Below are positions 2,003 through 18,989 of a stretch of 64,000 nucleotides of DNA, piece after piece. The position numbers and the translations under genes were made by a program. The notes beneath the pieces were generated by a model, which saw only the letters and a list, made by a program, of their open reading frames with translations, was not told the DNA's origin and did not search any database. The stretch lies in the IMG/VR virus record IMGVR_UViG_3300044655_001017; one strand, 5' to 3'. The DNA is from a virus (Duplodnaviria; Caudoviricetes). How positions within the stretch are numbered: the stretch's first letter is position 1; every line of letters begins with the position of its first letter.

Positions 2003-2003
2003 A

Positions 2004-2010
2004 ATAAATA
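2004..2010 (+). promoter_or_regulatory. Putative T4-type late promoter (ATAAATA)
   Basis: Near-match to TATAAATA in the short gap before ORF 2038. Confidence 0.5.
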
Positions 2011-2037
2011 CTACAAATATATTTTAAAGGATTTACA

Positions 2038-5016
2038 ATGCGGTTACGCGAATTATACGAAACAATAAATCTGTTTGAAGCATACGATACTAAAGTTGCT
2101 AAACTACATAAAGAATTTGCTCAAATGCGAGCAGGCTTTCCAGAAAAGCCTGAAACACAATGGGGGCCTGCAGTACCCGCAATTCCAGGTGACCCAAATG
2201 TACCGGATGAAACTCAATTAGCAGCATTAGTTAGTTTTGCCGAACAAGCATTTAAGTCAGGTGCAAAACCATCTGAACAAGCAATGCAATGGTACTTGTC
2301 ATTACTTGAAACTTATTATAAACAAAACGATCCTAAGTTTGCAGGTAAGTTTGCTGCAATGTGCGGTGAATATCAATTTACTGATTTTAATTCATTAAAC
2401 AATGATCTAGCACATTTCTTCACATCAGAATATGCTGATTCACAGTATATAAAGGACATAGTTAAAGCAATTAGACCAGCTACTACTCAAATTGATAATC
2501 TTATTACTAATGCAACTGCAGCTGAACAAAGAATACATGCAGAACACGAAGCAGCACGTAAATTAGCAGGTCGTCCGGATATTAAATTAATGGAAGGCGA
2601 TCAAGTAATATTACCAGTAGATAACAAATATGATTGGTGGTGGTTACCATATAGATCACACGAGTTTGAATCGGCAGCTATGGGACATTGCGGTAACTGT
2701 CAAACATCTGATGGAAATATGTTAAGTCTTCGTACTAACAAACCTATATGGCCTGAATTAACATTTGAATGGAATCCACAAGATAAAATGTTATATCAAA
2801 CAAAAGGCCCTCATAATTCAAAACCTGCTCATAGATATCGTCCGGCTATTTTAAAATTAATGCTTAGTGATTTAATAAGCGGCATTGGTAATGACTCATA
2901 TCAACCAGCTAACGACTTTTCTATATTTGACTTTGAACCAGCAGATGTAAAAACAATTGCAGATCAAAAACCAGATTTGATTACTAGCCAAATAGTAAAG
3001 TATCCGATTGACTTTTTAAGAGCTCCAGAATTTATTAGAGCTATTCCTGAATTTAGAGATATTGCAGTACAAAACGCACGCGGACTAGCAGCACTAGTTG
3101 ACAATACTGGCAAAGTTAACACATCACTAGATGCATGGGAAGATGCAATCGAAGCTGACAGAAGTATTATTATTTACGCTCCGGAAAATCTTAAAGATTA
3201 TGAAGACCGAATTATCGATGCGTTAAAACGTGATTCATCATTGCTAGGATTTGCAAGTGCTAAGATTCGCGGTAATCACAAAATTATGTCTGAAGTAATT
3301 AGATGGAATCCTAACTCAATTGAACTAGTTCCTCTTAGAGCACCTGCATATGAAGAACTAGCACTACAAGCAGTTACAAAAAGAGGTGAGCTATTAAAGG
3401 CTATTCCTGTAGAAAAAAGAACATATGAAATGTGTCTTACAGCTGCAAAAAATCGCCAGCTATGGGATGAAACTCCATTGAGAGAGTTTTACGAATTGTT
3501 TAATACACTACCCTTTACTAAAGACCAACATAGTGAATTAGCTTCATTGGTATTACAATACGATACAGAAAATAAATTATTAGATTTACTACCGGCTAAA
3601 ATTAGAACATTCCTATCATCAATGGCTCGTCTTAAACGCAGTGAACGTGACTATTATGGTGACGACCGCGCAGTACACGTAAAAGAAATAGTTGATTCAG
3701 TTACTCCTGGTTCAGTATCTGATGAAGAATATATGAAAATCTGTTTAAAGGCAGGTGAATTATCATTCCACCGCGCAGTACCAACAGAATTCCAAACATA
3801 TGAATATTTTAAAAAATATATACTTACTATAGAACCAACTGCAAACCGTATTATTACACCGGTCTTTACTCCCGCGTTTAAACAATTACCGCCTGAACAA
3901 CGAGAAGAGTTAGTATCAATTGCTGTAAAGTTATGTCCTGAATCGTATTTTGAATTACCATACGAGTATAAACTTAACTTATCTAGAACACTGAAGATGA
4001 TACAAAAAACTGATAGACCGTTAACTCATGGCATCGTTGCCGATATTACACTAGCGGCAAGTGAAAATGGTGTAACTGACGAAGACTATGATAAGTTAAT
4101 TGCGTATTACAAACACTCGCTTAAAGAAAGTGATGGTTCAGCTATATCCTATTTAAAAAACTATGCATTGACGCAAGCTAAAAAATATAATAACGATGAT
4201 TGGTTTGACGTGTTAGCATATGGCGCTAAACTTAACTTAACAGAATTTATAAATATTTTAACTCCTGATTTTGTTGATAATAACTTCGAATGGGTTGTTG
4301 ATACTATATGTAAAGAATTTAGTCAGTCTAGCTCAAATTTGCACTTTAGTGTATTAACCAACCGATATCCTGAAATTGTTGTTGAATTATTCAAACGCCT
4401 ACCAACTAGTGAGCTAGGTAAACTACAATACCCGCATTATATAGAACAAATGTATGAACTTGATCCTCGCAAGTTTAAACGAGTATTAGAGATTATGGTA
4501 GATCGAGAACCGCATTTAATTGCAGAAATACAAAATTTAGTACCAGACTATATTCCAGAAACAGAACAACCTTGGTTAGATAGATTAAACCATAAAGGAT
4601 TTACTAATGGTGGAATTGCGGCATTAAAATATAACTTCCCAATAGAGCTACTAACTCCTGAACTATTAAATACTGCAATCCTTGGTGCAAATAGAATGGA
4701 TGCTAATATTGAAAGAAAAATAGAGGAGTTATACAAATACTATAAAGATAAACCGGAATACGACGCCGTATTAGAAAATATGTTAGATCTTGTACCTAAC
4801 ATAATTACAATGTTATCTCCTCAAGAGATTGAGCTGTTTCATGTAAAACGCTTTATAACGTATTTAGAAAACAAAAAACATCCACCAGAAAGTATACTGC
4901 TACATTTTAGAAGAGAACCATTTCCGTCAGCTGCATCCCTAAAACCAAACATCGCAGAATATCTAAACAAATATAAAGCAGAGAAAGCACCTAACCTTAG
5001 CACTATCTCTTTTTAA
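2038..5016 (+). CDS. Large protein with PcfJ-like GHCG...Q.KG..NSKP domain and DUF4116-like helical repeats; paralog of next gene
   Basis: 992 aa; N-terminal ~450 aa visibly homologous to 5026..7758 (MGHCG, LSLR, KG..NSKP, YQPA.DFSIFD, KYPIDFLRAP). Confidence 0.6.
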   Translation: MRLRELYETINLFEAYDTKVAKLHKEFAQMRAGFPEKPETQWGPAVPAIPGDPNVPDETQLAALVSFAEQAFKSGAKPSEQAMQWYLSLLETYYKQNDPKFAGKFAAMCGEYQFTDFNSLNNDLAHFFTSEYADSQYIKDIVKAIRPATTQIDNLITNATAAEQRIHAEHEAARKLAGRPDIKLMEGDQVILPVDNKYDWWWLPYRSHEFESAAMGHCGNCQTSDGNMLSLRTNKPIWPELTFEWNPQDKMLYQTKGPHNSKPAHRYRPAILKLMLSDLISGIGNDSYQPANDFSIFDFEPADVKTIADQKPDLITSQIVKYPIDFLRAPEFIRAIPEFRDIAVQNARGLAALVDNTGKVNTSLDAWEDAIEADRSIIIYAPENLKDYEDRIIDALKRDSSLLGFASAKIRGNHKIMSEVIRWNPNSIELVPLRAPAYEELALQAVTKRGELLKAIPVEKRTYEMCLTAAKNRQLWDETPLREFYELFNTLPFTKDQHSELASLVLQYDTENKLLDLLPAKIRTFLSSMARLKRSERDYYGDDRAVHVKEIVDSVTPGSVSDEEYMKICLKAGELSFHRAVPTEFQTYEYFKKYILTIEPTANRIITPVFTPAFKQLPPEQREELVSIAVKLCPESYFELPYEYKLNLSRTLKMIQKTDRPLTHGIVADITLAASENGVTDEDYDKLIAYYKHSLKESDGSAISYLKNYALTQAKKYNNDDWFDVLAYGAKLNLTEFINILTPDFVDNNFEWVVDTICKEFSQSSSNLHFSVLTNRYPEIVVELFKRLPTSELGKLQYPHYIEQMYELDPRKFKRVLEIMVDREPHLIAEIQNLVPDYIPETEQPWLDRLNHKGFTNGGIAALKYNFPIELLTPELLNTAILGANRMDANIERKIEELYKYYKDKPEYDAVLENMLDLVPNIITMLSPQEIELFHVKRFITYLENKKHPPESILLHFRREPFPSAASLKPNIAEYLNKYKAEKAPNLSTISF

Positions 5017-5025
5017 GGAAAAATA

Positions 5026-7758
5026 ATGAGACTAAGAGAATTATACGAAACAATACAACTAGATGAAAACTATAATGGTAAGGTAAACAAACTTAAAAAC
5101 TCACCTTTGTTTGCACAAAACCCTGATCTACTACAAGACTTTGATGCACGACTTGGATGGGCTAAACAAGTGTTCAGTGATAAGAATCAACCTATGCTTT
5201 GGTATATCACACTATACGAAGCTTGGCTATTACAAGAACAAGACCCTAATGCAAAAACAAAATACGAAACAATGTTAGGCGGCCATCCACCTTTTGACTT
5301 TGCTGAATTTGAACAAACATTAAATCACTGGCTGTCTAGTGCATACGCAGAAAGAAATCAAATTAAAGACGTAGTTAAAAAGATCAACGCCCAAACTACA
5401 ACTGTTGATGCATTAATTAAAAACTTAGAAGCAGCTGAAGCAGTTATTAAAAAAGAAGATGAAGCTAAAGCTAAGAACGCAACTCCGATTGAAATACTTG
5501 AAGGCGACCATATTATATTGCCGCTTGGTAATCAAGGAGATTGGTGGTTACTACCTACTAGTTCTCATAAGGCAGAATCTAAGATTATGGGACATTGCGG
5601 TACAGCAGGAAACAACAAAAACGTACTATTGAGCTTACGTGATAAAACTCCAATACCTTGGGTTACTATGGAATACAGTGCTGACAACAAAGAACTACAT
5701 CAAATGAAAGGAAGATCTAATTCTAAACCTGCAAATAAATTCCATCATGCAATACTTGCATTATTAAAAAGCGATTTAGTTGACGGAATGTTTACTGGTC
5801 AAACATATCAACCAGCAAGTGACTTTTCTATATTTGATATGAACCCTGCAATGATAGAAGATGTTGCCGCTACTAAACCAAATCTTATAATGACTCAAAT
5901 TAAAAAGTATCCAATTGACTTTTTAAGAGCACCTCAAACGTTACGTGCAACTCCCGACTATAGAAACTTTGCTATATCATGCTTACCGGGTATTGCTGTA
6001 ATCTTAGACGAAGATGGCGTTACTTCAACAGATAACGACACTTGGGAAGAAGCAATTAACCAAGATCCTGGTATGATTATCTATTCACCCACTACATTAA
6101 AAGATTGGGAAAACCGTGTTACTAAATATTTGGTAAAAAATCATAGAAACTTAGGCTATTGCGGTAATCATATCCGTAGTAATTATAATATAATGAAAGA
6201 AGTAATTACACACGGAGATGCAGCTGCAATTGAATTAGTACCATACAGAGCACCTCAGTATAAAGAACTAGCATTACTTGCTATTGGACAATCGCCAATA
6301 TTGATTAAATCAGTAAACACAGAAGGCTGGTCTAAAGAGGAAATGAGAAAAGCATGGATGAATGCAGCTCATACATATTTAGATACAGAAGATTGGCCAG
6401 ATGAGTTATTTACACCTGAAGATGACAAAGAAATTTGGCGTACACAGGTTAAAAATAATAGATATTCAATTTCAAAAATTCCACCTGGATTGTTTGATGA
6501 ACAAGAATTAATTGAGGTATGGGGTGATGCAACTAAAGCACATCCTGGATTAATAAAGTCATCAGGGTTTATCAACTTAAATATCCCAAACGAAGCAAAA
6601 GATCAAATGAGAATTGCTGCAGTATTTGAACACCCAGAATATATTGCTGAATTTAGACCTGACTTAATTGAAGATGAAAATGATAGAATTGAACTTTGGA
6701 CTAAGGCATGTGATAGCTATCCTAACTTAATTACTGTACTTAAGAAAGCAGCAATACCTGATGAAGTTAAAATAGAATTAACTGTTAAGACAGTACGTGA
6801 TAATCCTACATATATTACAAATATTGATCAACGCTTAATACCTGATGAAAACGAAAGAATTGAACTTTGGATTAAAGCATGCAAAGTTCAACCAAAATAT
6901 AAAAATGATCCGCAATTTCCAACAGACGCATTCGATAGAAATCCTGCAAAACTAAAAGAATTATGGATTAGTATGTTTGAAACCACCTTACCTCATGATT
7001 GCCCTCGGTTGAATGAAATTCCAACAGAACTATTTACCCCAGAAGAATTAACTACATTAGCACGTAAAGTAATTGATAAAGACCCAAGCCAACTAATGTA
7101 CGCGCCGCCCTCTATAACAACTGCTGAAGAAAAATTAACTACTATTAAAGATCTTATGAATAGTGACCCGTGGAAGGTGATGAGCTCGCCACATAATCCA
7201 ACTCCGCCTGATCTGTATACTAGAGAACAAATTAAAGAAGTTTGGGATTATGCGCTTAGTAACGTTACTGACCCAGAATCAGATAGCAACGATGGCTATA
7301 TCGTAACGTCCGATTGGTTGCCATATCATATCGTTGATCAAGACTTGTTAAAGAGTGCTATACAACACGCTGCAATATACGACTATTATGAGAACGATTC
7401 TATATTAGCTAGAATAAATTATAATTTGCTCGAACGACTATTTACTCCAGCAGAAATAAGAAAGTTACATAAAGATGTGATATTAAATGCCAATTGCTAT
7501 ATGGAAGCCGGCGGACCGTTTGCTGCTATACCTCTAAATTATAGAACTTATGAGTTATGTAGATTTGCACTTGATCATGACCCGTCTAATATAAACATAG
7601 TGGTAGCATCAAAAGAAAACTTTACTGAACGTGAATTTGAAGAATTGCGGGCAATGTCCAATGACCCAATTGATGAAGAGTTTGTTAGAGATATACAACA
7701 ACATACCGCACATAACTCATTCCAAAATTACCGCCCATTACCATTTGAAGGACAATAA
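5026..7758 (+). CDS. Large paralog with the same N-terminal domain and helical repeats
   Basis: 910 aa; identical MRLRELYETI start; internal repeat DE.DRIELW.KAC. Confidence 0.6.
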   Translation: MRLRELYETIQLDENYNGKVNKLKNSPLFAQNPDLLQDFDARLGWAKQVFSDKNQPMLWYITLYEAWLLQEQDPNAKTKYETMLGGHPPFDFAEFEQTLNHWLSSAYAERNQIKDVVKKINAQTTTVDALIKNLEAAEAVIKKEDEAKAKNATPIEILEGDHIILPLGNQGDWWLLPTSSHKAESKIMGHCGTAGNNKNVLLSLRDKTPIPWVTMEYSADNKELHQMKGRSNSKPANKFHHAILALLKSDLVDGMFTGQTYQPASDFSIFDMNPAMIEDVAATKPNLIMTQIKKYPIDFLRAPQTLRATPDYRNFAISCLPGIAVILDEDGVTSTDNDTWEEAINQDPGMIIYSPTTLKDWENRVTKYLVKNHRNLGYCGNHIRSNYNIMKEVITHGDAAAIELVPYRAPQYKELALLAIGQSPILIKSVNTEGWSKEEMRKAWMNAAHTYLDTEDWPDELFTPEDDKEIWRTQVKNNRYSISKIPPGLFDEQELIEVWGDATKAHPGLIKSSGFINLNIPNEAKDQMRIAAVFEHPEYIAEFRPDLIEDENDRIELWTKACDSYPNLITVLKKAAIPDEVKIELTVKTVRDNPTYITNIDQRLIPDENERIELWIKACKVQPKYKNDPQFPTDAFDRNPAKLKELWISMFETTLPHDCPRLNEIPTELFTPEELTTLARKVIDKDPSQLMYAPPSITTAEEKLTTIKDLMNSDPWKVMSSPHNPTPPDLYTREQIKEVWDYALSNVTDPESDSNDGYIVTSDWLPYHIVDQDLLKSAIQHAAIYDYYENDSILARINYNLLERLFTPAEIRKLHKDVILNANCYMEAGGPFAAIPLNYRTYELCRFALDHDPSNINIVVASKENFTEREFEELRAMSNDPIDEEFVRDIQQHTAHNSFQNYRPLPFEGQ

Positions 7759-7830
7759 AAAAGATGACAACATACTGACCCTGCGAAGCAGGCGGTAAAA
7801 CAATTTTTCAGCTTTTAGATACTAACCTTA

Positions 7831-7860
7831 AAATAAAACCAGCAACAGCTGGTTTTATTT
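7831..7860. terminator. Bidirectional intrinsic terminator
   Basis: AAATAAAACCAGC-AACA-GCTGGTTTTATTT perfect 13-bp stem between convergent genes. Confidence 0.75.
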
Positions 7861-8009
7861 TGGCCCCAGGCCCTACATAATAAAATCCGGCCCCTACATG
7901 GTTACGATATCGTGAAATCCACTGTTTATTCACTGTGCTTATGGATTAGGGGCATAACAGTATATTCACCATTTTAACAAGTTTTCTAGACCATCCAAAC
8001 ACCGTAGAA

Positions 8010-8228
8010 CTATTCACTACGGTTGCGTATGGTAGACTTAACTTCACTTATGGTAGATTCCAGCCTTGAGATTTGACGCGCTTGACGTTCTACCGTTTCC
8101 ATTAGACGGTTGACTAGCGTATATAGATGGCTAGAGTCACTGTGCATAAACTTACTGCTACCATTTTCAAACTCTACTCGGCCCGGGACTATGCTTTTCG
8201 GGACCGGCTCTTGATTATATTGTTCCAT
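8010..8228 (-). CDS. Hypothetical protein with C-terminal coiled coil
   Basis: 72 aa ORF with GGAG RBS; heptad pattern. Confidence 0.6.
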   Translation of the reverse strand: MEQYNQEPVPKSIVPGRVEFENGSSKFMHSDSSHLYTLVNRLMETVERQARQISRLESTISEVKSTIRNRSE

Positions 8229-8603
8229 ACTAACTCCACTGTGTGTATACTGTATATATCACTGTGACGCCACTGTAGAGGTAGGGTGCGGGCCGAAAGG
8301 GTCCTAGGGGTCTAAAAAATTTCCCGCGCAAAAAATTAGAGAGAAGTACTTACAGATTCTCCCTGGTGATTTAGTACCTATGGGGTTAAATTTAGAGGAG
8401 TTTTTAGAGTTTTTAGAGTTTAGGGAAAAAAGGTTGCGTTGTTGTAAAAAAACAACAAATTGTTGTATTATATGTCCCCCCACCCCTCGGGGCATTGTAT
8501 TGCGTTACACTATTATAGCACACTACACACTACATTGCAAGCTTTTTTTACGCAAAAAACTAAAAAAATAAAAAAATAATTTAACATTTTTTTAAAAAAA
8601 CGC

Positions 8604-8631
8604 TTGCTATTTTTTTAAATTACTGTATAAT
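8604..8631 (+). promoter_or_regulatory. Sigma70-type early promoter
   Basis: TTGCTA-N16-TATAAT upstream of 8733. Confidence 0.6.
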
Positions 8632-8732
8632 ATGCTGTAAGTTAAGTAGTTAAGCAGTTTACTTAACTAGCGCACTAAATGTGTGCATACACGTTTAGTG
8701 CTACATTATACGCACTAAAAAAGGGCATAACT

Positions 8733-9113
8733 ATGTTAGACAATATTACAGTACAAAGCATTGCAAGTAAAAGCAACAAAACCGTGCAATGTGTAGGGGT
8801 TAGCACGCACGAAAAAGCGACAATAGGCACTAAGATACGTTTTAGCGGTAAGCCCGATAGTAGTGCGCGTGTTAGCACGCTAATTGCAACAAAATTGCAC
8901 AGCGACATAATTATGTGCGATTTAAGTGCGCAGGTTAGCGAATTGCAAGGCGCGGTTATAGTGCGCGATACGTTAGCAGATACAGACTACTTGCAAGCGC
9001 ACCAATTAAGTGCAATAGATAGCTACATTGCTAAATACAGTACGCACGAAATTAGTGCAGCACGGGAAAACATTAGCAATAACAATATTAAAATTGTTAA
9101 AATACTAATGTAA
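8733..9113 (+). CDS. Hypothetical early protein (KVRF..RV..L...H.DI family)
   Basis: Paralog of 11310..11693; start refined to ATG after AAGGG. Confidence 0.75.
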   Translation: MLDNITVQSIASKSNKTVQCVGVSTHEKATIGTKIRFSGKPDSSARVSTLIATKLHSDIIMCDLSAQVSELQGAVIVRDTLADTDYLQAHQLSAIDSYIAKYSTHEISAARENISNNNIKIVKILM

Positions 9114-9124
9114 CACAGTAACAC

Positions 9125-9157
9125 AGCAACTACACTGCAAAGTGTAGTTGCTTTTTT
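9125..9157 (+). terminator. Intrinsic terminator
   Basis: AGCAACTACACT-GCAA-AGTGTAGTTGCT then T-run. Confidence 0.8.
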
Positions 9158-9327
9158 ACTTGCTTTTTTAGTTTGTTTATGCTATAATAACGCATAGTAA
9201 AAAGTTAAAATAAAAAGCTATAGCGGGGCCGTCGGTGGCCAAGACAGACTGGATTTGAAAAGGCCGGAACCGAAACCACTATCCGATAGCTCTCCAAGTA
9301 TCTACCATAGCTCTCCACCTAGACCTC

Positions 9328-9366
9328 ACTGTATCCTTACTGTATCCTTACTGTATCCTTACTGTA
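9328..9366. repeat. 11-bp tandem repeat (ACTGTATCCTT)x3.5
   Basis: Three exact copies plus ACTGTA. Confidence 0.9.
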
Positions 9367-9407
9367 CCGGCAACAGGTGCTATATTAGTATAGCACCTTT
9401 CCCCACC

Positions 9408-9557
9408 TTAGTCAACTAAGTCTTTAAACCGTTTTATCTTACTAGTAAAGCGTGCCGCGTGTTCCTTACGTGTAAGGCTAAGCACGGTAACAAACGCTCC
9501 GCTTAATGCGTATGCGTTTCGTTTATATATGTAACCATAATAGTTGTTTGTTTGCAT
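9408..9557 (-). CDS. Small hypothetical early protein
   Basis: 49 aa, MQTNN start behind the promoter/AGCGTG leader cassette. Confidence 0.5.
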   Translation of the reverse strand: MQTNNYYGYIYKRNAYALSGAFVTVLSLTRKEHAARFTSKIKRFKDLVD

Positions 9558-10338
9558 AGTATGTTGCACGCTGTAGTTGTTTAGTAAGTGCATATTATAG
9601 CACGCTACACAAAAAATGCAAGCATTATTTTTACAAACAATAACCACACACAACCACCTATCCATAACCCCAATTTTCAAATATCTCACAGCGGGGCCTT
9701 TATAAAAGTGGTCACTTATGGCAAATGGATACAAGCGGTAAGCACTAACGCAAATTTGCGTTTTAAGCGTTGTTTGTTGTGTACTGCTATAGTTGCATTG
9801 CTTAGTATATAAACGCGTATTGTGTACACGTTAACGCGCAAGTTTTAGCAATGTAAATTATAAATGCTAAGTGTATTTTACACGCGCACGACAAATATTA
9901 AAAGTTTACAGCGGGGTATTGATATACCGGTTGCTCATTATGCTATACTATAGTATAATATTGGTATATTGAAACGTTGGTAAGATGGTAAAGAGGTTGA
10001 GGGCAGAGATAAGGGAAAGCCCGGTCCATTGCATACTGGATTCCGGGCTTTGGGCATACTATGTAAGTATGTTGTATGGTTGGTGAACAAATGCTACTAC
10101 CCATCTGCCCACCTGAGGTCTTTAGTCTTTACAGCGGGGCCTTTCTATAGGTCCTACTTTGTTTTGCGTCTAATTACTCGACGGCATGCGATTGTACTTT
10201 TTTTGGTTGCGCGATCGGATCTTCTTGCCATGTTGTTCTCCAGTGTTGTTGTAAAAAAGTATTTAACGTTTTAACTATTATACTATAGTGTTAAAGTAAA
10301 TGCAAGCACTTTTTACAGTGCTTGCATTGTGTTATTGT

Positions 10339-10698
10339 TTAATTAACAGTGCTATTTTGCACTTGTTTAACATACTTATTAAATGTTTTTTTAGTAACAC
10401 ATTTTATGTAAGCGTTGTTAATTTGCATTTGCGTTAAATTAGCGTTATTTGCTAGCGTTACTGTATAGCTAACACTGTAATTGCTAGCAAAGTTAATGTT
10501 AGCAACAAAAGCACTGCTAACATAGCATAACACATAATTTTTAGCTGCTTTGTATATTGTACGCTTTGCGTGTTTTTGCTTTGTTGCTATTACTTTGTTA
10601 TTAGCTACATAAGCGTTAAGCACTTGTAACATAGCTTGTTGCGTTGCTTTGTTACTGTTTTTTTGCGCTTGTTTGCGCGTTGCTGTAATTGTTTGCAT
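10339..10698 (-). CDS. Basic hypothetical protein lacking D, E, G, P and W
   Basis: 119 aa behind promoter cassette; terminator-like hairpin after stop. Confidence 0.6.
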   Translation of the reverse strand: MQTITATRKQAQKNSNKATQQAMLQVLNAYVANNKVIATKQKHAKRTIYKAAKNYVLCYVSSAFVANINFASNYSVSYTVTLANNANLTQMQINNAYIKCVTKKTFNKYVKQVQNSTVN

Positions 10699-10805
10699 AA
10701 TATACACACTATAGTTAAATTGTTAAAAAGCGTATGTTAAACGTAATTGCTTAACACAGTGCATATTATACACGTTTGTGTACAATATGCAAGCGTTATT
10801 TTTAA

Positions 10806-10982
10806 TTATTTTAGCAGTGCATCAAACGCTCCGCAAAACCCTGCAAACGCTATTGTTATCGGAGTAGCAACCAGCATCCACGTTACCGCGTCCACCATGA
10901 AGTTCATAACTCCATATTGCGTGTTACGCGCGTTTGCTTGTTTGTTTAAAAAATTTTGTACTGTTTGTTGTTTAGTTTGCAT
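10806..10982 (-). CDS. Small membrane protein
   Basis: 58 aa, hydrophobic C-terminal half; own promoter. Confidence 0.6.
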   Translation of the reverse strand: MQTKQQTVQNFLNKQANARNTQYGVMNFMVDAVTWMLVATPITIAFAGFCGAFDALLK

Positions 10983-11309
10983 AGTAGTAAGCACGCTGTT
11001 GTTGTTTAGTAAGTGCATAGTATAGCACGTTTAAAAATAATTGCAAGCTTTATTTGTATATTGTTTTCCGGTTGCCCAACACCTGCGAAGCCGGGGGGGG
11101 GGGGTGGTTGGTCGGTCTGTCCGATTGCCTAGCGGTCTAGTCCGGCTCTGTGGTGTGCATAGTATAGCACGTTTGTGTTGTAATTGCAAGCACTTTTTTA
11201 TTTAATTTTAGCATAGTAGTTTGCACGCTGTAGTTGTTTAAGTAGTGCATAGTATAGCATAGTTAAAACAAAAACGCAAGCACTTTTTACAGTGCTTGCG
11301 CTTGCTATG

Positions 11310-11693
11310 TTATTTAAGCACTGCTATTATTTGCACGTTATTAGTGCTTAATTCGTCTTGTGCATTGCTTTGCTCTTGTGCATTAAACTTATTTACAAAA
11401 GCTTGCATTGCACTATTTTGTTGCTCGTTATGATGTTCGCCTTGTTGTAGTGCAACAAGTGTTGCAGCTAATTCCGTGCATTGCACGTTTAAAGTGTAAA
11501 ATACTATATCGCTATGCTCTTTTGTTGCTAAAAGCGTGCTTACGCGTGCTTGCGCTGTTTTATCTGTAAAGCGTACTTTATAACCTATTGTCGCTTTAAC
11601 GTGCAAGCTTGCGCCTACTGCTATTACTTTTTTAGTGCTTGCGTTAATGCTGTTAACTACAATGTTTTGCACGCTAATGTTGCTGTTTGTCAT
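11310..11693 (-). CDS. Hypothetical early protein, paralog of 8733..9113
   Basis: Shared KATIG.K.RF...ARVSTL.ATK.HSDI segment. Confidence 0.8.
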   Translation of the reverse strand: MTNSNISVQNIVVNSINASTKKVIAVGASLHVKATIGYKVRFTDKTAQARVSTLLATKEHSDIVFYTLNVQCTELAATLVALQQGEHHNEQQNSAMQAFVNKFNAQEQSNAQDELSTNNVQIIAVLK

Positions 11694-11902
11694 TTTCTCG
11701 CTCCGAGTGTTGCACTAAAATAGTGCTATTAGTTAATACTGCTGTTTGTTACTACAAGTGCTATTATACGCTGTTTATTTGCACTTGTAAAGCGTTTTTT
11801 TAAAATACTTTTAAAACGCTTTTTTGTTGCACTGCTTTACTACAAAAACTATTATACGCTTTTTTGCGTAAATGTAAAGCGTTTTTTTATTTTATTTTTT
11901 GC

Positions 11903-11931
11903 TTGCATTTACTGTTTTATTGTGTTATAAT
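11903..11931 (+). promoter_or_regulatory. Sigma70 extended -10 promoter with no downstream ORF
   Basis: TTGCAT-N17-TATAAT with TG. Confidence 0.6.
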
Positions 11932-11975
11932 AGCGCAAGCGTAAAGCCCGCGCTACCGGTTCTCTCTATACCGCC

Positions 11976-12173
11976 TTACCTCATATCGCTGTCCGCCGCT
12001 TTATCACAGCGTGTCGCATATCCGGTGAGCACCGACTCATTCAACTTATCGAGGAGTTGAACTTCCATTGCCCGGTGTTGTTGGCACTCAGCTAGTGTTG
12101 GATATATGAATGTGTTATCAATTTCCTGCGCCCCAATAAACATCATCACTTTCAATATATATAATGCTTCCAT
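11976..12173 (-). CDS. Small hypothetical protein
   Basis: GGAGC RBS, own promoter. Confidence 0.6.
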   Translation of the reverse strand: MEALYILKVMMFIGAQEIDNTFIYPTLAECQQHRAMEVQLLDKLNESVLTGYATRCDKAADSDMR

Positions 12174-12501
12174 TGTTCTTGCTCCGCTTGTTACGTTAGC
12201 TTTATTGCTAACTTGCATATAGTATAGCAAACTATTAAACTATATGCAAGTGTTTTGTTTTCGACTAGTCCACTAATGCACTTGCTCTAAGATCCACAAA
12301 GTTCGCATACTTCATTGTGTCTTTTGTTTCTCTGCGCTCACGTAGTAGTGCAGTCCGGGCACGCTCGACTTCTCTGCGGGTCTGTACACCAATTAGTCTT
12401 GCGCTCAACACTGCCGTATATTCTTGTACCGGTTTCATTCTATGCTCCTAATGGTTTCAAAAGTTCGTTGTTGTCAGCACGTCCATGTGCCCTGTGTTAG
12501 T

Positions 12502-12801
12502 TTATAGTCCGTACATTTCAGCTACGCTGTTTGCCACACGTCCGTCGTTACCCCATTGTACTTTAATGCAACCCGGATGTTCATTGCCCAGTGCTGCCAA
12601 CTTAGCAAGTGCCAATTCCCAGTTGTTTAGTTTGTCTACTGGTTTCGGAGCGTCAGCACTTGTAAAGTAGTTAGCTGGTGGTACCTTACGTTCCGGAACA
12701 TTGCTTTTACTTGTTTTCACTTTGCCGCCTGCTTCCAAAAACGCTTGTACTGCATTGTTTGTTGCTGTGTTTTTTGCTTGTTTGTTTGTATTAGTAAACA
12801 T
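12502..12801 (-). CDS. Hypothetical early protein (AV.AFL..GG family, cf. 14451)
   Basis: Promoter cassette; AFLEAGGK resembles MFLATGGA in 14451. Confidence 0.65.
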   Translation of the reverse strand: MFTNTNKQAKNTATNNAVQAFLEAGGKVKTSKSNVPERKVPPANYFTSADAPKPVDKLNNWELALAKLAALGNEHPGCIKVQWGNDGRVANSVAEMYGL

Positions 12802-12976
12802 AATTTGCACGCTGTAGTAGTGTTAACAGTTAAACGTTATTGCTTAACTTGCATATAGTATAGCAAAGCAAAACTGGTATGTAAAGCGTTTTTTTTAAGT
12901 GTTGTTTCCATTGTGCCCACGCGTGTACACATAAACAGCGGGGCCTTTTCGGCACTTCCCTGTGCCGTTGTATCCG

Positions 12977-13318
12977 TTATAGTCCCGATCCGCATAAGCA
13001 GTTATACACAAACTCAGCATCCTGTAATGCCACATTGTTTATGTAATCCACTAAGTCCTTGTGCTCCTCTACTTCCTCTACAAACGCTTGTACCGCAGCA
13101 TCATCGTTCCACAAGTCATCATGTGCTTCGTAATGTCTGTTGTATATTGTTACCATTTGCGCAATTATATGCACCGGATGTTCAGTAGTGCCCCACTCCT
13201 CCGCATAGTTCTCGTCCGCCAACATAAACACTGTACTTGTTACGCTGGGAGTTAGCGGGTACTTGCTTGTGTTTGCGTTTGCTGTGTTAATTTTTGTTGC
13301 TGTAGTAGTATTTTGCAT
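12977..13318 (-). CDS. Hypothetical protein, tandem duplicate 1
   Basis: Near-identical C-terminal half to 13487 (IYNRHYEAHDDLWNDDAA). Confidence 0.75.
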   Translation of the reverse strand: MQNTTTATKINTANANTSKYPLTPSVTSTVFMLADENYAEEWGTTEHPVHIIAQMVTIYNRHYEAHDDLWNDDAAVQAFVEEVEEHKDLVDYINNVALQDAEFVYNCLCGSGL

Positions 13319-13486
13319 AGTTAGCACGCTGTAGTTATAAGTTAGCTTAATTGCTAACTTGTACATATTATAGCACGTTTAAACATTTTGTAAAGCGTTT
13401 TTTTAAGTTTTGTTTTCGCTGTTACCATACGCGTGTACACATAGCAGCGGGGCCTTTCCGAGCACGTCCATGTGCTCTGTGTTATC

Positions 13487-13834
13487 TTACAAGCCCGAGC
13501 AACATAAGCAATCATACACAAACACTGTGTTCTGTAATGCCACATTGTTTATGTAATCCACTAACTTCGCATTGTCCTCAACTTCCTCTATACACGCTTG
13601 CATCGCAGCATCATCGTTCCACAAGTCATCATGTGCTTCGTAATGTCTGTTGTATATCTCTGCTATCTTTAATACTATGTGTGTCGGATGTGTCGTTGTG
13701 CTCCACTCCTCCGCAAAGCTCGCATCCGCCAACAGTGCCAGCACACTTGTTTTGCTCGGATAGTACCCGGGCAATTTGCTTGTGTTTACGTTTTGTGTGT
13801 TAATTTTTGTTGCTGTAGTAGTATTAGTTTGCAT
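13487..13834 (-). CDS. Hypothetical protein, tandem duplicate 2
   Basis: Paralog of 12977 with duplicated promoter and CAGCGGGGCC. Confidence 0.75.
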   Translation of the reverse strand: MQTNTTTATKINTQNVNTSKLPGYYPSKTSVLALLADASFAEEWSTTTHPTHIVLKIAEIYNRHYEAHDDLWNDDAAMQACIEEVEDNAKLVDYINNVALQNTVFVYDCLCCSGL

Positions 13835-14013
13835 AATAAGCACGCTGTAGTAGTGTTAACAGTTAAGCGTTATTGCTTAACTTGTACATAGTATAACACG
13901 TTTAAACATTTTGTAAAGCGGTATTTTAGAGTATTGTTTCCGACATAACCGGGGGGGGGGTGGTCGGTCGGTCTGTCAGATTGCTTGGCACTTCCCTGTG
14001 CTCGATATATCAG

Positions 14014-14385
14014 TTATGCCATTATGCTCGCTACTTCAGTGTATCGTTGTTTCAATCTTTCGATCATATGGAGTAAGTCGACATTAAAGACTAAGTCATA
14101 TACATCGCTTTCCGTTGTACTCACTATACCAATTGCACTCGTGTAATGGAGTTGTTCGACTATAGTCGTTACAGTCGTTACATCTATTTTCAATTGTTTC
14201 GATACTTCGGCTAGTAACACTTTCGAAACTGTCTTGCGATCTCTGTCCGCTAGTCTATGAAACCCTTTTGCCAACATCCTTGCAACATCGGTATTTTGGC
14301 GTATCGTTGCACCAATGCTATCGTTATGCTCGTGTAACTCGTTTAAAAACTTAATATGGTTTCTCAATACTGTTTGGATAATCAT
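14014..14385 (-). CDS. Hypothetical protein
   Basis: 123 aa, GGAGCG RBS. Confidence 0.65.
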   Translation of the reverse strand: MIIQTVLRNHIKFLNELHEHNDSIGATIRQNTDVARMLAKGFHRLADRDRKTVSKVLLAEVSKQLKIDVTTVTTIVEQLHYTSAIGIVSTTESDVYDLVFNVDLLHMIERLKQRYTEVASIMA

Positions 14386-14450
14386 TATGCGCTCCAGTTA
14401 ATCAGTTAAGTACGCGCATACTCGATATATGCGCGTGTAAACAGCGGGGT

Positions 14451-14717
14451 CTATTGGCGTGCTTTGATTGCCGATTGCACCTGCTTGTTCAACAGCCCAA
14501 TTGCCGCTAGCTCCTCTTTAGCTTGTTCCCATGTGTATCGTTGTTTCTCTACTACAACTACGCGGGGAGTATGGACTTGTGATACTGTAGTGCGTCCTCT
14601 GCGTCCTGTTTTAGTTGTTTTAATTGCTCCTCCGGTTGCTAAGAACATTGCCACGCGAGCCGCTAACTCCGCTGCTTGTTGTTGTTTAACTTCGTTGTTC
14701 ATAATACCTGTTGCCAT
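14451..14717 (-). CDS. Hypothetical protein
   Basis: 88 aa, coupled to upstream ORF. Confidence 0.6.
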   Translation of the reverse strand: MATGIMNNEVKQQQAAELAARVAMFLATGGAIKTTKTGRRGRTTVSQVHTPRVVVVEKQRYTWEQAKEELAAIGLLNKQVQSAIKARQ

Positions 14718-14878
14718 TATACACGCTCCGCTTTATCGTTAATGTCAGTTTCTTCAGTTTGCTCACAATCCCAACATGGTTCAAGCTCATCTGTTTCCAT
14801 GTTGTATAGTACAGTCAAGTCCCCACACGTAGTGCAATACGCGCGTAGTGGGTAAGTGTTTTTGTATTGTACTTGCAT
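14717..14878 (-). CDS. Small Zn-ribbon-like protein
   Basis: CTTC...CWDC. Confidence 0.55.
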   Translation of the reverse strand: MQVQYKNTYPLRAYCTTCGDLTVLYNMETDELEPCWDCEQTEETDINDKAERV

Positions 14879-14983
14879 AATTTTTACACGCTGTTTTGTT
14901 AATGTGTGCATATTATAGCATTGTAACACGCGCATTGCAAGTAGTTTGTTAACCGCAATGCGCGTGTACATAAGCAGCGGGGC

Positions 14984-15400
14984 CTATACGGTAGTTACGA
15001 GCAACAAGTTGTCCAACACATCCGCTTTAGCTCTGTATACCATGTTGCCGTGTCTCGTATGCTCAATTACAATCCCATTTGCCTCACACCACAAGTCCAA
15101 ACGCGCTGCTCTTAAGCTCACTTTATCTTTAAACTGTGGTTTGTTGACTTTAACGGCAATAAACTTTTTTCTGTAGTTCATAAACACGTTGCTCTGTATA
15201 TACACATCCTCAATGTGTGCTAACAACGCTTCCCCTGCGCTCAATTGCACTAAGCTATACAAACTCTCATTCTCAGCGTCTCTGCGTTTAATATCCTCTA
15301 AGCACACGTAAGCTGGAAGTTTGACGTCATCCGATGTGTGTGATACAGCGTGTACAATAGCAGTAGCTGTGTTTTTGAGTAATTTAGTAGTTGTTGACAT
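14984..15400 (-). CDS. Hypothetical protein
   Basis: 138 aa, promoter cassette. Confidence 0.65.
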   Translation of the reverse strand: MSTTTKLLKNTATAIVHAVSHTSDDVKLPAYVCLEDIKRRDAENESLYSLVQLSAGEALLAHIEDVYIQSNVFMNYRKKFIAVKVNKPQFKDKVSLRAARLDLWCEANGIVIEHTRHGNMVYRAKADVLDNLLLVTTV

Positions 15401-15505
15401 ATGATACGCTCCGAAAGTTATGTTAAGTTTTAAACAGTTAGCTGTTTTGCTAACTTGTACATATTATAGCAAACTAAGTACAAGTTAGCAAGTGATATTT
15501 TTGAA

Positions 15506-15694
15506 CTATAGTTCCACTAGCTCGCCGCGTGCTACTGCGTCCGCAGCTTCTAGTTCCTCTTTATAGAACTTGTTGATAGCATTGTTTGTTTCGAGATACG
15601 ATTTGGAGTTTTTGGCTTGTGTACGCAATTGGCGTGTGAGCATGTTAATGTATTTGATACGCGCGGCGCTTGTGATGTAAAGTATTTTTTGCAT
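15506..15694 (-). CDS. Small helical protein, paralog of 16161
   Basis: NSKSYLETN vs NSKAYLEAN. Confidence 0.6.
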   Translation of the reverse strand: MQKILYITSAARIKYINMLTRQLRTQAKNSKSYLETNNAINKFYKEELEAADAVARGELVEL

Positions 15695-15793
15695 AATATA
15701 CACGCTATAGTTATAAGTTAGCTTAATTGCTAACTTGTACATATTATAGCAAACTATATACAAGTTAGCAAATGGTATTTTAGAACTTTGTTT

Positions 15794-16066
15794 TCACCCT
15801 TCCGGATAGCAACCAGCTTCCATCATTGCATAGATAACTCGTTCTCTTGGTAGAGTATCTTGATATACCAGCGAGTTGATTAACTGATCGTAGTCGCCGC
15901 TTTTCATATAACTGATTAAACACTTTTGGTTGTACTTGCCATCTTCAATTGCCAAGTCCATAAAGTCCCACTCATCTGCTTCGGCATACTCTTTTGCTTG
16001 AGCATTGAAGTCGGTAACACATTGTTTGAGGGTAGCGATTACAACAGGATTAGTAGTGTTTGGCAT
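15794..16066 (-). CDS. Hypothetical protein
   Basis: 90 aa, own promoter. Confidence 0.65.
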   Translation of the reverse strand: MPNTTNPVVIATLKQCVTDFNAQAKEYAEADEWDFMDLAIEDGKYNQKCLISYMKSGDYDQLINSLVYQDTLPRERVIYAMMEAGCYPEG

Positions 16067-16160
16067 AGTAGTTTACACGCTGTAGTAGTTAAGTAAGTGT
16101 ATATTATAAAGCATTGCAGGCGGTTTGTAAAGAACTTTGTTAACCGCCTGCCGGTATATA

Positions 16161-16418
16161 CTACGCGGCTTCTAATTGCGCCAATGCAAACGCTTCATCA
16201 AGTGCCATCTCCGCAATGTATATACGGTTTAACTGAGTGTTGGCTTCCAGGTAAGCTTTGGAGTTAACACGCGCGGCACTGATTTGAGAGCGGAGCGAAC
16301 GGATTTGGCGGGCGGTCGCTTCCGATACAAGGCGCTTTGGCTTTTGGGCAGCTGCCTCCGCTTCGGCTTGCTTGTGTGCTTTAAGTTTGGCTGCTAACGA
16401 TACATTGTATTTTGACAT
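16161..16418 (-). CDS. Small helical protein, paralog of 15506
   Basis: Own promoter. Confidence 0.65.
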   Translation of the reverse strand: MSKYNVSLAAKLKAHKQAEAEAAAQKPKRLVSEATARQIRSLRSQISAARVNSKAYLEANTQLNRIYIAEMALDEAFALAQLEAA

Positions 16419-16587
16419 AGTAGTTTACACGCTTGTTGTTAAGTAAGTGCATATTATACTATAGTATGCACTGGTTGTCAAGAACTTTATATTCACCCGC
16501 GCTCGCACACGCGTAAACAGCGGGGTCTATCCGGGGGGGGGGAGGTCGGTCGGATTGGCCGGTTATTCGCTGCCCCCAATCTATCGG

Positions 16588-16761
16588 TTACTCATCGTCC
16601 CATATGTCGTCCCAGTCTATTGGTGTGTAGGCATCATCTATATCGTCTCCCCAGTCTTCGTCCATTCCTGCAAAGAACTCTTTTCGCTCTTGCATTAAGG
16701 TCGCACCGCGTGTTTGAAGTATTGCTAACTGCTCTCTTAAGTTTTGCTCTATAGCTTCCAT
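16588..16761 (-). CDS. 57-aa protein with Asp/Trp-rich tail (not in ORF track)
   Basis: GGAG RBS; ...DEDWGDDIDDAYTPIDWDDIWDDE*. Confidence 0.6.
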   Translation of the reverse strand: MEAIEQNLREQLAILQTRGATLMQERKEFFAGMDEDWGDDIDDAYTPIDWDDIWDDE

Positions 16762-16825
16762 AACAGCTCCGACTAATTAGTTAAGTCGCCCCGCCATACA
16801 CACATATGCAGCGGGGCCTATTACT

Positions 16826-17179
16826 CTATGCTACTGCTAACTCAGCTTCCAGTGCATCTGCTGCTGCCGCGTAGTCCACTTCCTCAACTACTACACTTTG
16901 TGGAGCAACCACTGTGTACTTGCTAAAGAAGTCATCGAATGCTTGTTGTGCATCTAAGTCCTCTAACTCTGTGTAGTTCTTAATTGCCATTGCTGCATCA
17001 TACTTGGTCATTGCACCGTCTAGCGCAAACAATCTAATGTCTGTGTGTCCATTGCGTTGTAACACTTTCACACGATCCGCTTTGTTAGCAAATCGTACTT
17101 TGTACACACCATTTAAGTTGCTGATGCCAGCGAAAGTAAATGTTTTTTCAACTGCAGTAACTGTGATTAAGTTTGACAT
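16826..17179 (-). CDS. Hypothetical early protein (KVRFAN..RV..L..NGHTDI family)
   Basis: Close paralog of 35649..36134. Confidence 0.75.
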   Translation of the reverse strand: MSNLITVTAVEKTFTFAGISNLNGVYKVRFANKADRVKVLQRNGHTDIRLFALDGAMTKYDAAMAIKNYTELEDLDAQQAFDDFFSKYTVVAPQSVVVEEVDYAAAADALEAELAVA

Positions 17180-17273
17180 ATTGTACGCTCCAAAAAATAG
17201 AAAAGTTAAGTTGTTTTACTGCTAGTTAGCTAACGCGCTTGTTAGCTAACTTGTTACATATTATACAGCATTT

Positions 17274-17507
17274 TTAAAACATTGCAAGCATTTTGTTTTC
17301 TCTTGCTTCAAGTATTGCATCAATACGCGCCTCAACACTCTCTGCGCTCTCAAGTGTTGTCCAGCCGCCGTTGTTGTGGCGTCCATCTTGTACTGAAGTT
17401 TCCATAATTCCTGTGTTTCTATTTTTATACTCCGACACTGTGATAGTAGTGTTAAAGTAGATAGTAACGATGTTGTTGCTTGTTGTAGTAATTTTTAATT
17501 TATACAT
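17274..17507 (-). CDS. Hypothetical protein
   Basis: HNNGGW motif; GGAGCG RBS. Confidence 0.6.
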   Translation of the reverse strand: MYKLKITTTSNNIVTIYFNTTITVSEYKNRNTGIMETSVQDGRHNNGGWTTLESAESVEARIDAILEARENKMLAMF

Positions 17508-17737
17508 AATACGCGCTCCGCATTGTTGTTTAACTTGTACATAGTATAGCAAACTTATTTTGGTTTGTAAAGAAGTTTTAAATCACTAGCTCATACCAGT
17601 TCAATACAGCGATTGCGCTCAATAATACGATAGTAGTGAATACTGCGAATGTGTGTATAAACGACATTTTGTTTGCTCCTCATATATATAGTACACGCAT
17701 AGTATAGCAAACTACATACAGGTTGTCAACTGGTTTG

Positions 17738-18304
17738 TTACTCGGTGTATGCCGCCATTACCAATCCCACATAGTTCTGAGTCTCCGGATATGGTGGAAC
17801 CTTATTCTTATGCCGCATCACCGCATGCTCGCCCGCATTGTAACCGGCTACTGCTAGTTTGGTATCTTTGAATGTATCGAGCAAGAACCTTAGGAACCGA
17901 ACTCCACCTTCAATGTTCTGTCTTTCATCCATCCGATCACTCACTCCAAATCGCTCTGCCGTTGCCGGCATCAGCTGCATCAATCCAGCCGCACCTTTCT
18001 TACTTACAGCCGATTTGCGATATGTACTTTCCGTTTTAATGACTGCATGTACCAACTTCTCATCCACTCCATACTTCTTTGCAGCGATATGAACATAGTG
18101 ATTGACTTCCCATCGGGTTAATGGTTTGGTCTCCGGTTTCGCTACTATAGTAGTATGAACAACTGGTTTGGCTGCAGTATTGATCTCAACCGGATGATCT
18201 GTTAACCAAACTCGCCCATCCGCTCCCGTATATCTATATACATCCGCATTCACCGGCATTACTACTATAGTAGCGAGAATGGCAGCGCGGATCATTTGGC
18301 GCAC
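17738..18304 (-). CDS. Lytic transglycosylase (SLT) with signal peptide and DUF4124-like N-terminus
   Basis: AVIKTES, GLMQLMP, AGYNAG, PPYPETQNYV; DVYRYTGADG. Confidence 0.9.
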   Translation of the reverse strand: MRQMIRAAILATIVVMPVNADVYRYTGADGRVWLTDHPVEINTAAKPVVHTTIVAKPETKPLTRWEVNHYVHIAAKKYGVDEKLVHAVIKTESTYRKSAVSKKGAAGLMQLMPATAERFGVSDRMDERQNIEGGVRFLRFLLDTFKDTKLAVAGYNAGEHAVMRHKNKVPPYPETQNYVGLVMAAYTE

Positions 18305-18588
18305 TCTGCTGCGAACTTAACCATTGCTGCATACTCTGGATTGGCTACAGCGGTGACTACATGAGTAAGTAAATGAGCAATCATTGTAATCCCACCGATC
18401 CATGCTACGATCATTACACATGCATAGGTAAACGCATCCGATCCATTGAACTCATCTTTTAATAACTTAAACAGATAGTATGATCCAGCTAATACTCCAG
18501 ATATTACTACTATAGCGGCAATGTCTGGAATGGTGTCTATAATAGCTTGCTTTGCCAATAACTCTTGTGGTACATTGCATAACTTCAT
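18292..18588 (-). CDS. Two-TM membrane protein
   Basis: Two hydrophobic helices; overlaps SLT start. Confidence 0.65.
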   Translation of the reverse strand: MKLCNVPQELLAKQAIIDTIPDIAAIVVISGVLAGSYYLFKLLKDEFNGSDAFTYACVMIVAWIGGITMIAHLLTHVVTAVANPEYAAMVKFAAECAK

Positions 18589-18989
18589 AACGCGCTCCGC
18601 AGTTGTTGTTTAACTTGTACATATTATAGCATACACAGCGGGGTCTGTAAAGAACTTTGTTACTCGTATACGCCCACTTGTATGTGCGCGTGTAGCGTGT
18701 TATATTATAAGCGCATAGCATACTATAGTATAAGTATGCTCACGCACTATAGCGCATTTATACGCGATATACGCTATGATACACTATAGTATAATAATAA
18801 GCGCATATACACATATGAGTAACTATGCACAGCGGGGCCTTTTATAGGTCCAGGACTCGATAATAACTCGTCATCTTCGGTTTTTGGCCCGCGTCGTTAG
18901 CGGTCTGCAACACCATGATTTTGCCGTTTTTCACGTTTATAGACCGACCTAGTACCAGAGTACAGGGTCCGGTTAAAAAGAATAAGAAA

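Follow-up and report, generated by a model that had tools for sequence, protein, structure and literature searches.

A domain purged of GA and GG on both strands near a probable genome end of a lake-water jumbo phage

DpdA-type 7-deazaguanine modification of phage DNA follows defined sequence contexts: GA and GGC in phage CAjan, and GA in phage iggy. The DNA of Pseudomonas phage PA5oct resists EcoRI, BmrI, XbaI and BsaI, from which its authors infer a modified G at GA and/or GG; modification-dependent END nucleases restrict this phage, and its gp52 protein inhibits END nucleases (bioRxiv 10.1101/2025.03.31.646159). PA5oct is dependent on host RNA polymerase (PMC7318152), and its annotation includes a 39-kb terminal repeat, recognized from doubled coverage. 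Hypermodified phage DNA of this kind is usually taken to be uniformly protected. Here we describe 64,000 nucleotides of viral DNA (Caudoviricetes; IMG/VR record IMGVR_UViG_3300044655_001017; hereafter, the window), which is part of a lake-water jumbo phage distantly related to PA5oct, the closest relative that has been studied: the DnaB-like helicases of the two share 58% identity. Our subject is a domain of the window from which GA and GG are missing on both strands over long tracts, the longest of which, 582 bp at positions 10241–10822, contains an entire gene for a protein of 119 amino acids (aa) whose protein cluster also occurs on a 355-kb contig.

In what follows, GR/YC denotes GA and GG together with their complements TC and CC, a rule that is symmetric between strands. 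A recount across 10241–10822 gives zero GR/YC dinucleotides, as the original prediction had claimed, where ~87 sites are expected (frequency ~0.150 from T 243, A 162, G 98 and C 79; P ~1e-41), squarely within the 85–90 that it had estimated. For comparison, the GR/YC frequency of the whole window is 0.159, and G+C content is 30% in the tract versus 38% in the window. Similar tracts had been proposed at 8492–8723 and over much of 8.5–11.9 kb; these are present, and the phenomenon reaches further, with every zero tract of at least 99 bp falling within 8.5–17.3 kb. After the longest come 11706–11947 (242 bp), 8492–8723 (232 bp), 11153–11353 (201 bp), 9067–9225 and 13259–13416, followed by smaller examples at 10913–11067, 9738–9890, 13771–13920 and 12736–12876.

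The purge is specific to two dinucleotide steps. The ten unique dinucleotide steps form 45 pairs, and for each pair the longest free tract was compared with its expected maximum. The pair GA/TC plus GG/CC reached 582 bp against an expected 53, or 10.9-fold; the runner-up pair reached 2.2-fold. The absolute rule operates at the dinucleotide level, and the tracts show no general avoidance of restriction sites: TGCA occurs 38 times (41 expected), TTAA 54 times (55 expected) and TATA 37 times (29 expected), and only CATG and some other words are low. Avoidance of protospacer-adjacent motifs (PAMs), an RNase-type cause acting on RNA and avoidance of Shine-Dalgarno-like words were each considered and rejected, because the observed rule applies equally to both strands and spares no GA or TC, instead of singling out particular longer words. 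CATG itself is absent from the pooled zero tracts (2583 bp; 8.2 expected), in which 6-bp palindromes are also reduced (51 versus 90). CATG is scarce elsewhere too, both at 1–8000 (15 versus 30.5) and at 19000–64000 (164 versus 220), which suggests avoidance of a CATG-specific restriction system; that site contains no G-purine step.

The tract is not an assembly artefact, since contigs from independent lake-water metagenomes match it without a single difference: one from a 2024 sample (run X1; 9788–10717) and two from a 2020 sample (run X7; 9780–10362 and 10337–10796). It is also present in runs X2 to X4, the region recurs in at least 18 DNA runs, and relatives carry orthologous tracts, so the artefact that had been named as a possible refutation is not borne out. 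A megablast search of 8000–14000 against 50,697 phage records gave no match.

Comparison among these relatives indicates that the purge is upheld by selection. Orthologous GR/YC-free tracts measure 541 bp (contigs L006 and L007), at least 561 bp (L008 and L009) and 630 bp (L010). Across the aligned tracts there are 104–126 substitutions per pair and none of them creates a GR/YC site, where 47–48% of random single changes would do so (P ~1e-30 per pair). The substitutions separating the window from L006 run in both directions (C>T 10, T>C 16; G>A 11, A>G 13), and new G and C in the orthologous tracts are confined to allowed contexts. The 119-aa gene, on the minus strand at 10339–10698, has a dN/dS of 0.16–0.22 at a dS of 0.8–1.1, which marks this open reading frame (ORF) as a genuine gene subject to purifying selection. 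Its product, a very basic protein built from only 15 amino acids, lacks Asp, Glu, Gly, Pro and Trp (D, E, G, P and W), as had been predicted, and so do its orthologues at 81% and 68% identity.

How far coding sequence has been bent to the rule can be gauged from the fewest GR/YC sites that any synonymous recoding of a protein would permit, a minimum that we computed by dynamic programming over synonymous codons. The 119-aa gene has 0 sites (minimum 0, expected 22), an avoidance index of 1.0. The 127-aa gene at 11310–11693 (minus strand) has 16 (minimum 14, expected 41; index 0.93), and the 126-aa gene at 8733–9113 (plus strand) has 30 (minimum 19, expected 56; index 0.70, computed on the longer ORF 8679–9113 of 144 aa). 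The median index of genes outside the region is 0.05. The sites left over in the latter two genes, which are paralogous (41% identity, E 2e-27), are GA and GG on the sense strand and represent unavoidable Asp, Glu and Gly codons. Amino acid composition follows suit: D, E, G, P and W together make up 0% of the 119-aa protein, 9.4% of the 127-aa protein and 12.5% of the 8679–9113 product, versus 25.7% elsewhere. The 119-aa protein matches no PHROG family, a PHROG search with ten small early proteins returned nothing useful, and tblastn of the 127-aa protein against phages gave no match; an AlphaFold2 (AF2) model of the 119-aa protein, built on a three-sequence alignment, is unusable, with a predicted local distance difference test score (pLDDT) of 43.

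In the strongly purged domain, 8492–11947, zero tracts account for 1893 bp and the remaining 1563 bp are islands, in which GR/YC density is 20–40% at distances of 0–100 bp from the zero tracts. On both strands the tracts bear sigma70 promoters close to consensus (TTGCAT, TTGCAA, TTGCTA or TTGCTT, then N16-17 and TATAAT), along with conserved leaders that lack a Shine-Dalgarno sequence, gene starts (MQT...) and hairpin terminators. Among −35 boxes in the window, ~30 promoters are of the TTGC type versus 4 with TTGACA. Around 13 promoters of this near-terminus type, which we term class A, GR/YC falls to about zero between roughly −30 and +10, counted from the end of the −10 box, and stays under background between roughly −60 and +30, a zone that approximates the footprint of the polymerase in size. 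Past 12 kb the purge is limited to promoter cassettes of 100–158 bp, and most gene bodies between them are ordinary (indices ~0 or lower); the exception is an index of 0.63 at 14717–14971, which overlaps the cassette 14852–14953.

Cassette copies share 78–91% identity among themselves, and the region is variable among close relatives. In contigs L001 (13874–15943) and L002, window positions 8899–11863 are swapped for a different 2.07-kb block that is flanked by sequence of 94–96% identity, and both contigs lack the 119-aa gene. Repeated promoter and stem-loop units around small ORFs, in a region that varies among close relatives, are the marks of mobile early cassettes of the promoter-early stem-loop (PeSL) kind.

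Read depth steps up two-fold at 8200–8360, and in each of four runs the contigs to the right of the step are covered about twice as deeply as those to the left: 162–185 versus 310–429 (X1), 27–33 versus 50–77 (X2), 3.4–4.5 versus 6.3–10.8 (X3) and 37–48 versus 92–122 (X4). The doubled depth persists to at least 20 kb in the four runs. Summing of strains cannot explain the doubling at 9788–10717, because this block is missing from the co-occurring L001-type strain. Given the doubling in four runs and the precedent of PA5oct, a long direct terminal repeat, and with it one physical genome end, probably starts at about 8.3 kb; this start is drawn from contig depths of short-read metagenome assemblies and not from read ends. 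The purged domain opens about 0.2 kb inside the step. Gene orientation also changes hereabouts, with plus-strand genes at 1–7.8 kb and, from 9.4 kb, genes that are nearly all small and on the minus strand. A 176-kb contig of a relative with 94–96% DNA identity has just 2 GR/YC-free tracts of at least 60 bp in its first 169.5 kb, which is unique sequence lying upstream, but 14 within its final 6.4 kb, and the GA+GG pair does not rank among the top five pairs in the first 164 kb. The contig graphs branch at 8200–8360, with an alternative flank at 8440 and a 60-bp skip from 8265 to 8326.

Searches for modification genes, which the original prediction had advocated (dpdA, folE, queC, queD and queE), were directed at this same relative. 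It encodes FolE (Pfam, 2e-60) and a QueE-like radical S-adenosylmethionine protein (phrog_2076, 1e-58), clustered with a phosphoribosyltransferase (PRTase); neither QueC nor QueD (PTPS) turned up in the 176-kb contig, itself ~48% complete. Directly upstream of the cluster, past a polymerase and a protein without PHROG function, a contig that overlaps the start of the 176-kb one encodes a 632-aa protein (L021:8110–10008) with an invariant GDSGGFQ motif, which we take to be the active-site motif of tRNA-guanine transglycosylases (TGTs). Its ESM neighbours include TGT and DpdA clusters, and the top 50 Protein Data Bank (PDB) matches to an AF2 model (pLDDT 63, poor in part) are all tRNA-guanine transglycosylases, with E from 2e-4 and probability 1.0, albeit at template-modelling (TM) scores of only 0.22–0.38. 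Pfam, PHROG and PDB sequence searches with this protein were negative, and PF01702 has no match in the relative's contig, so its identification comes from fold search and motif alone; on the strength of the model, we regard it as a predicted TGT-fold (DpdA-like) transglycosylase. The family comprises 7,555 database proteins at E ≤ 0.001; the best 120 are 62–90% identical, none of these 120 has a precomputed Pfam domain, and many are on 100–350-kb contigs.

PA5oct encodes a homologue of the 632-aa protein (222988–224283; 39–46% identity), and in its genome GA+GG is again the top of the 45 pairs. The longest free tract there, of 217 bp, precedes the tRNA cluster and reaches precisely to the first tRNA gene. 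Tracts of at least 60 bp number 18, and all but two of them lie within small-gene regions; tracts of PA5oct include 267341–267557 and 264998–265138. A regular-expression scan of the first 50 kb of PA5oct did not find the TTGCAA-type promoter class.

What might such a purge be for? We lean, with only slightly better than an even chance in our estimation, towards a domain kept motif-free in order to stay unmodified, as an immediate-early module. The lineage would swap G in G-purine steps (GA, GG) for a 7-deazaguanine derivative by means of its TGT-fold transglycosylase, and the purged dinucleotides would be the probable target motif of this enzyme of the phage's own. Selection has stripped GA and GG, on both strands, from the first 3.7 kb of the probable terminal repeat wherever function allows. 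This stretch, with at least 13 near-consensus sigma70 promoters, leaders, terminators and three small genes, would be a dense immediate-early module; six more promoter cassettes are purged as well, out to about 9 kb. Since DNA without the target motif cannot be modified, the module would remain ordinary B-DNA within an otherwise modified virion chromosome.

Two benefits of such an arrangement can be envisaged. Host RNA polymerase might use the promoters at the very moment of DNA entry. Sigma region 4 reads the −35 box via the major groove, where a 7-substituent would sit, and because the boxes read TTGCAA or TTGCAT, not TTGACA, their G lies outside the target context; a motif-free zone approximating the polymerase footprint at each promoter would fit this benefit. 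By analogy with the first-step-transfer DNA of phage T5, the arrangement might also leave fewer modified bases near the end for modification-dependent nucleases to act upon before inhibitors are made. Put more generally, it is conceivable, although we place this somewhat below an even chance, that a phage with sequence-specific hypermodification reserves, where its terminal repeat begins, a landing pad of ordinary, motif-free DNA for the immediate-early programme, with self-motif avoidance that abolishes Shine-Dalgarno sequences and confines a conserved protein to 15 amino acids.

Among the explanations offered by the original prediction, that the segment must stay unmodified now has the best support: relatives carry the TGT-fold, FolE, QueE-like and PRTase genes, GA and/or GG is the inferred context in PA5oct, and the same pair ranks first in the PA5oct genome. 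The companion suggestion of first-injected DNA finds its agreement in position, with tracts that start ~0.2 kb inside the two-fold depth step read as the terminal-repeat start. Several observations weigh against the idea that the domain is kept free of the motif so as to remain unmodified. The GR motif is carried over from inference by restriction digest on PA5oct, a phage with only 58% DnaB identity, and the digest list for that phage includes ApaLI (GTGCAC), a site without GR. The incomplete contig of the relative yielded no QueC or QueD. The published PA5oct promoters use TTGAC (PMC7318152), and PA5oct tracts are much shorter. CAjan, with its proven GA and GGC motif, has no GA-free tract (longest 81 bp versus 77 expected); 7-deazaguanine alone therefore does not force a purge, and a general rule by which every DpdA phage clears its motif from early promoters is rejected. 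The effect would then be lineage-specific, perhaps because a bulkier base is made here. A polymerase footprint leaves the purged gene bodies unexplained, and islands inside the domain retain roughly 210 GR/YC sites, which weakens the idea of DNA invisible to modification-dependent nucleases.

Other explanations must be set against the same observations. Mutagenesis specific to YC, also raised by the original prediction, would be a scar of saturating C-to-T deamination at TC and CC on both strands, whether by an APOBEC-like or DddA-like enzyme or by ultraviolet light. The missing dinucleotides are indeed classic deaminase contexts, and the tract has less G+C than the window, but the data contradict such a scar and we grant it hardly any credence: orthologue substitutions are balanced and go both ways, with new C and G only in allowed contexts; promoters and terminators are intact; the 119-aa gene is under purifying selection; and a regional footprint is rejected because islands with 20–40% GR/YC lie directly between zero tracts. 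Nor does history alone suffice. An AT-rich ancestral promoter-leader unit without GR/YC by chance could have been copied and homogenized by gene conversion, in keeping with the mutual identity of the cassettes, with the exchange of block 8899–11863 between close relatives and with the mobile early cassettes of T4-type phages, which resemble this pattern. That account is largely refuted, and very improbable, given a unique 360-bp gene with 0 sites and a 15-letter alphabet that is kept in orthologues at dS ~1, two paralogues near their codon minimum, and the same pair at the top in PA5oct.

Functional alternatives to a domain kept free of modification are harder to dismiss, but each meets obstacles. 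DNA without GG/CC and GA/TC steps could, through its mechanical properties, help to end packaging, to make the genome end recognizable, to eject the DNA or to copy the terminal repeat; the domain starts ~0.2 kb from the inferred physical end, and coding and non-coding DNA are equally covered. We nonetheless judge this improbable, as a structural preference would not require a strict zero and would leave unexplained the interspersed islands of normal density and the separate promoter-centred zones of 100–160 bp up to 9 kb from the end, while PA5oct 239–277 kb suggests that promoters remote from a terminus can have tracts too. Evasion, independent of modification by the phage itself, of a host factor recognizing unmodified GR/YC, be it a low-specificity nuclease, a YC-preferring deaminase defence or CRISPR with CC, TTC or NGG PAMs, would protect first-entering DNA exposed before counter-measures take effect. 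Such a role would accord with a domain just inside the inferred terminal-repeat start, with the vulnerability to restriction and CRISPR of T5 first-step-transfer DNA alone (bioRxiv 10.1101/866236) and with the dearth of CATG and 6-bp palindromes in the tracts, as might be expected of unprotected DNA. Yet if virion GR carries modified G, these sites are already shielded and a purge adds nothing, PAM avoidance needs the loss of CC or TTC only and not of every TC and GA, and the match with the inferred modification context of PA5oct, one pair in 45, would be coincidence. We know of no defence with plain GR/YC specificity, and overall consider evasion of this sort unlikely.

From left to right, the domain begins with the 232-bp tract 8492–8723, which carries divergent near-consensus sigma70 promoters at 8540–8512 (−) and 8604–8631 (+) and whose right edge coincides with the GG in the ribosome-binding site that serves the GR/YC-minimized gene 8733–9113. 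The first of these promoters points towards the inferred genome end; its predicted transcript, ~70 nt at 8512–8420 with a C/G-rich hairpin and an intrinsic terminator, may be a small RNA made at the very terminus. Next come the tract 9067–9225, with a terminator at 9125–9152 and a promoter at 9160–9188 (+), and a class A cassette at 9536–9644 (−), with a TTGCAT-N16-TATAAT promoter (9621–9594), a leader without a Shine-Dalgarno sequence and the MQT... start of a small gene (9408–9557). An island of normal density, 9891–10240, holds 73 GR/YC sites, a promoter at 9931–9959 (+), two copies of an 8-mer, CAGCGGGG, and the gene for a very basic 25-aa peptide (10154–10231, −). This gene has a GGAG ribosome-binding site and is driven by the GR-free promoter 10305–10277; a near-identical peptide is encoded in L001 at about 15120–15200.

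The 582-bp tract contains, besides the 119-aa gene, promoters at 10305–10277 (−) and 10792–10765 (−) and a terminator at 10299–10328. Beyond it lie a GR/YC-free class A cassette at 10913–11067 (−), with a promoter at 11046–11019 and the start of a small gene (10806–10982), and the tract 11153–11353, with a promoter at 11189–11161 (−) and a terminator at 11303–11272. The terminator-like hairpins at 9125–9152, 10299–10328 and 11303–11272 all obey the dinucleotide rule, as anticipated. The 87 bp at 11067–11153 that separate these two zero tracts form an island with 68% G+C, in which 11 G's stand in a row. Sequencing runs disagree on how long this G run is, X2 showing two G's more and X1 a loose poly-G end; the island may be an insertion, or difficult to assemble. 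After the gene 11310–11693, the 242-bp tract 11706–11947, with four promoter-like sites on both strands, forms the right edge of the strongly purged domain. Six more GR/YC-free class A cassettes follow on the minus strand at 12736–12876, 13259–13416, 13771–13920, 14852–14953, 15675–15774 and 17201–17299. An Rfam scan of 8000–19500 by E-value returned nothing credible, and the GR-rich islands match no known RNA family. Metatranscriptome contigs of runs X19 and X20 represent a variant strain and may be DNA carry-over; expression is not proven by them.

A second promoter class, class B, occupies 20033–56290 on the minus strand, with about a dozen near-identical cassettes of TTGCAA-N17-TATAAT, a conserved leader, a GGAG ribosome-binding site and ATG. 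Each heads a run of small genes and, unlike the near-terminus class, keeps its Shine-Dalgarno sequence. Class B promoters (20–60 kb) are GR-free from about −20 to +20 only, and are not counted as independent support because all share one conserved sequence. The 8-mer CAGCGGGG occurs 20 times within 9689–57956, always on the plus strand, where 0.28 copies are expected; its sites include 9689, 9909, 10132, 12936, 14442 and 57339, mostly just past the stop codon of a minus-strand gene. It forms the 5' arm of a plus-strand hairpin (GGGGCC, loop, GGTCC), and at least one copy (10136–10155) has a T-rich run behind it. The motif may terminate transcription in one direction, blocking antisense transcripts that run rightward, or may be a strand-specific site, for instance one of the Chi type. 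One copy adjoins an Rfam match to Polynucleobacter-1 RNA at 57350–57494 (−; 59.6 bits, gathering score 37), which may hint at a freshwater betaproteobacterial host.

Should the domain prove to be kept motif-free so as to stay unmodified, no earlier example would be known of a virus whose own DNA-modification specificity shapes both its regulatory DNA and the composition of its proteins. It would follow that modification costs early expression or exposes DNA to modification-dependent nucleases, and that phages handle this cost by sequence design. The modification motif could then be read from locally purged dinucleotides alone, predicting the chemistry of uncultured phages, and testable predictions follow for the culturable relative PA5oct. 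The 119-aa protein itself shows that a conserved protein can be built in nature without Asp, Glu, Gly, Pro or Trp.

Set beside known systems, the locus shares features with DpdA-type modification as described for CAjan and iggy and as inferred for PA5oct. The same kinds of gene are present in relatives (TGT-fold protein, FolE and QueE), and the purged dinucleotides coincide with the contexts reported there. Motif-free, presumably unmodified islands are where the two part company: we found no published account of them, and CAjan has none. The base made here may also differ from the DpdA type, because the TGT-like protein is 632 aa long, belongs to no Pfam family and adjoins a PRTase. With the first-step-transfer region of T5, the domain shares its place at the opening of a long terminal repeat (probable here), very strong sigma70 promoters and small pre-early genes, and the leading DNA of T5 is the part exposed to host nucleases (bioRxiv 10.1101/866236). 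T5 DNA, however, is unmodified, no dinucleotide purge has been described for it, and two-step entry is a feature of T5.

Avoidance of palindromic restriction sites is likewise selection against short words, and CATG and 6-bp palindromes are low in the tracts too. Here, instead, two of the ten dinucleotide steps are gone completely and locally, TGCA and TTAA stand at expectation, and a protein loses five amino acids. APOBEC3 footprints in animal viruses, in which TC is depleted, are alike in affecting a deaminase-type context, but they are genome-wide and partial, whereas the depletion here is absolute, local and strand-symmetric, with a balanced spectrum. The PeSL cassettes of T4-type phages are repeated units of terminator and early promoter that flank small ORFs in a hyperplastic region, much as the units here recur around small ORFs in blocks whose content varies among relatives of 94–96% identity; to our knowledge, PeSLs follow no dinucleotide rule. 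We came across no earlier description of two dinucleotide steps being purged locally and absolutely in connection with the modification context of the phage itself, nor of a conserved protein held to 15 amino acids for a DNA-level reason.

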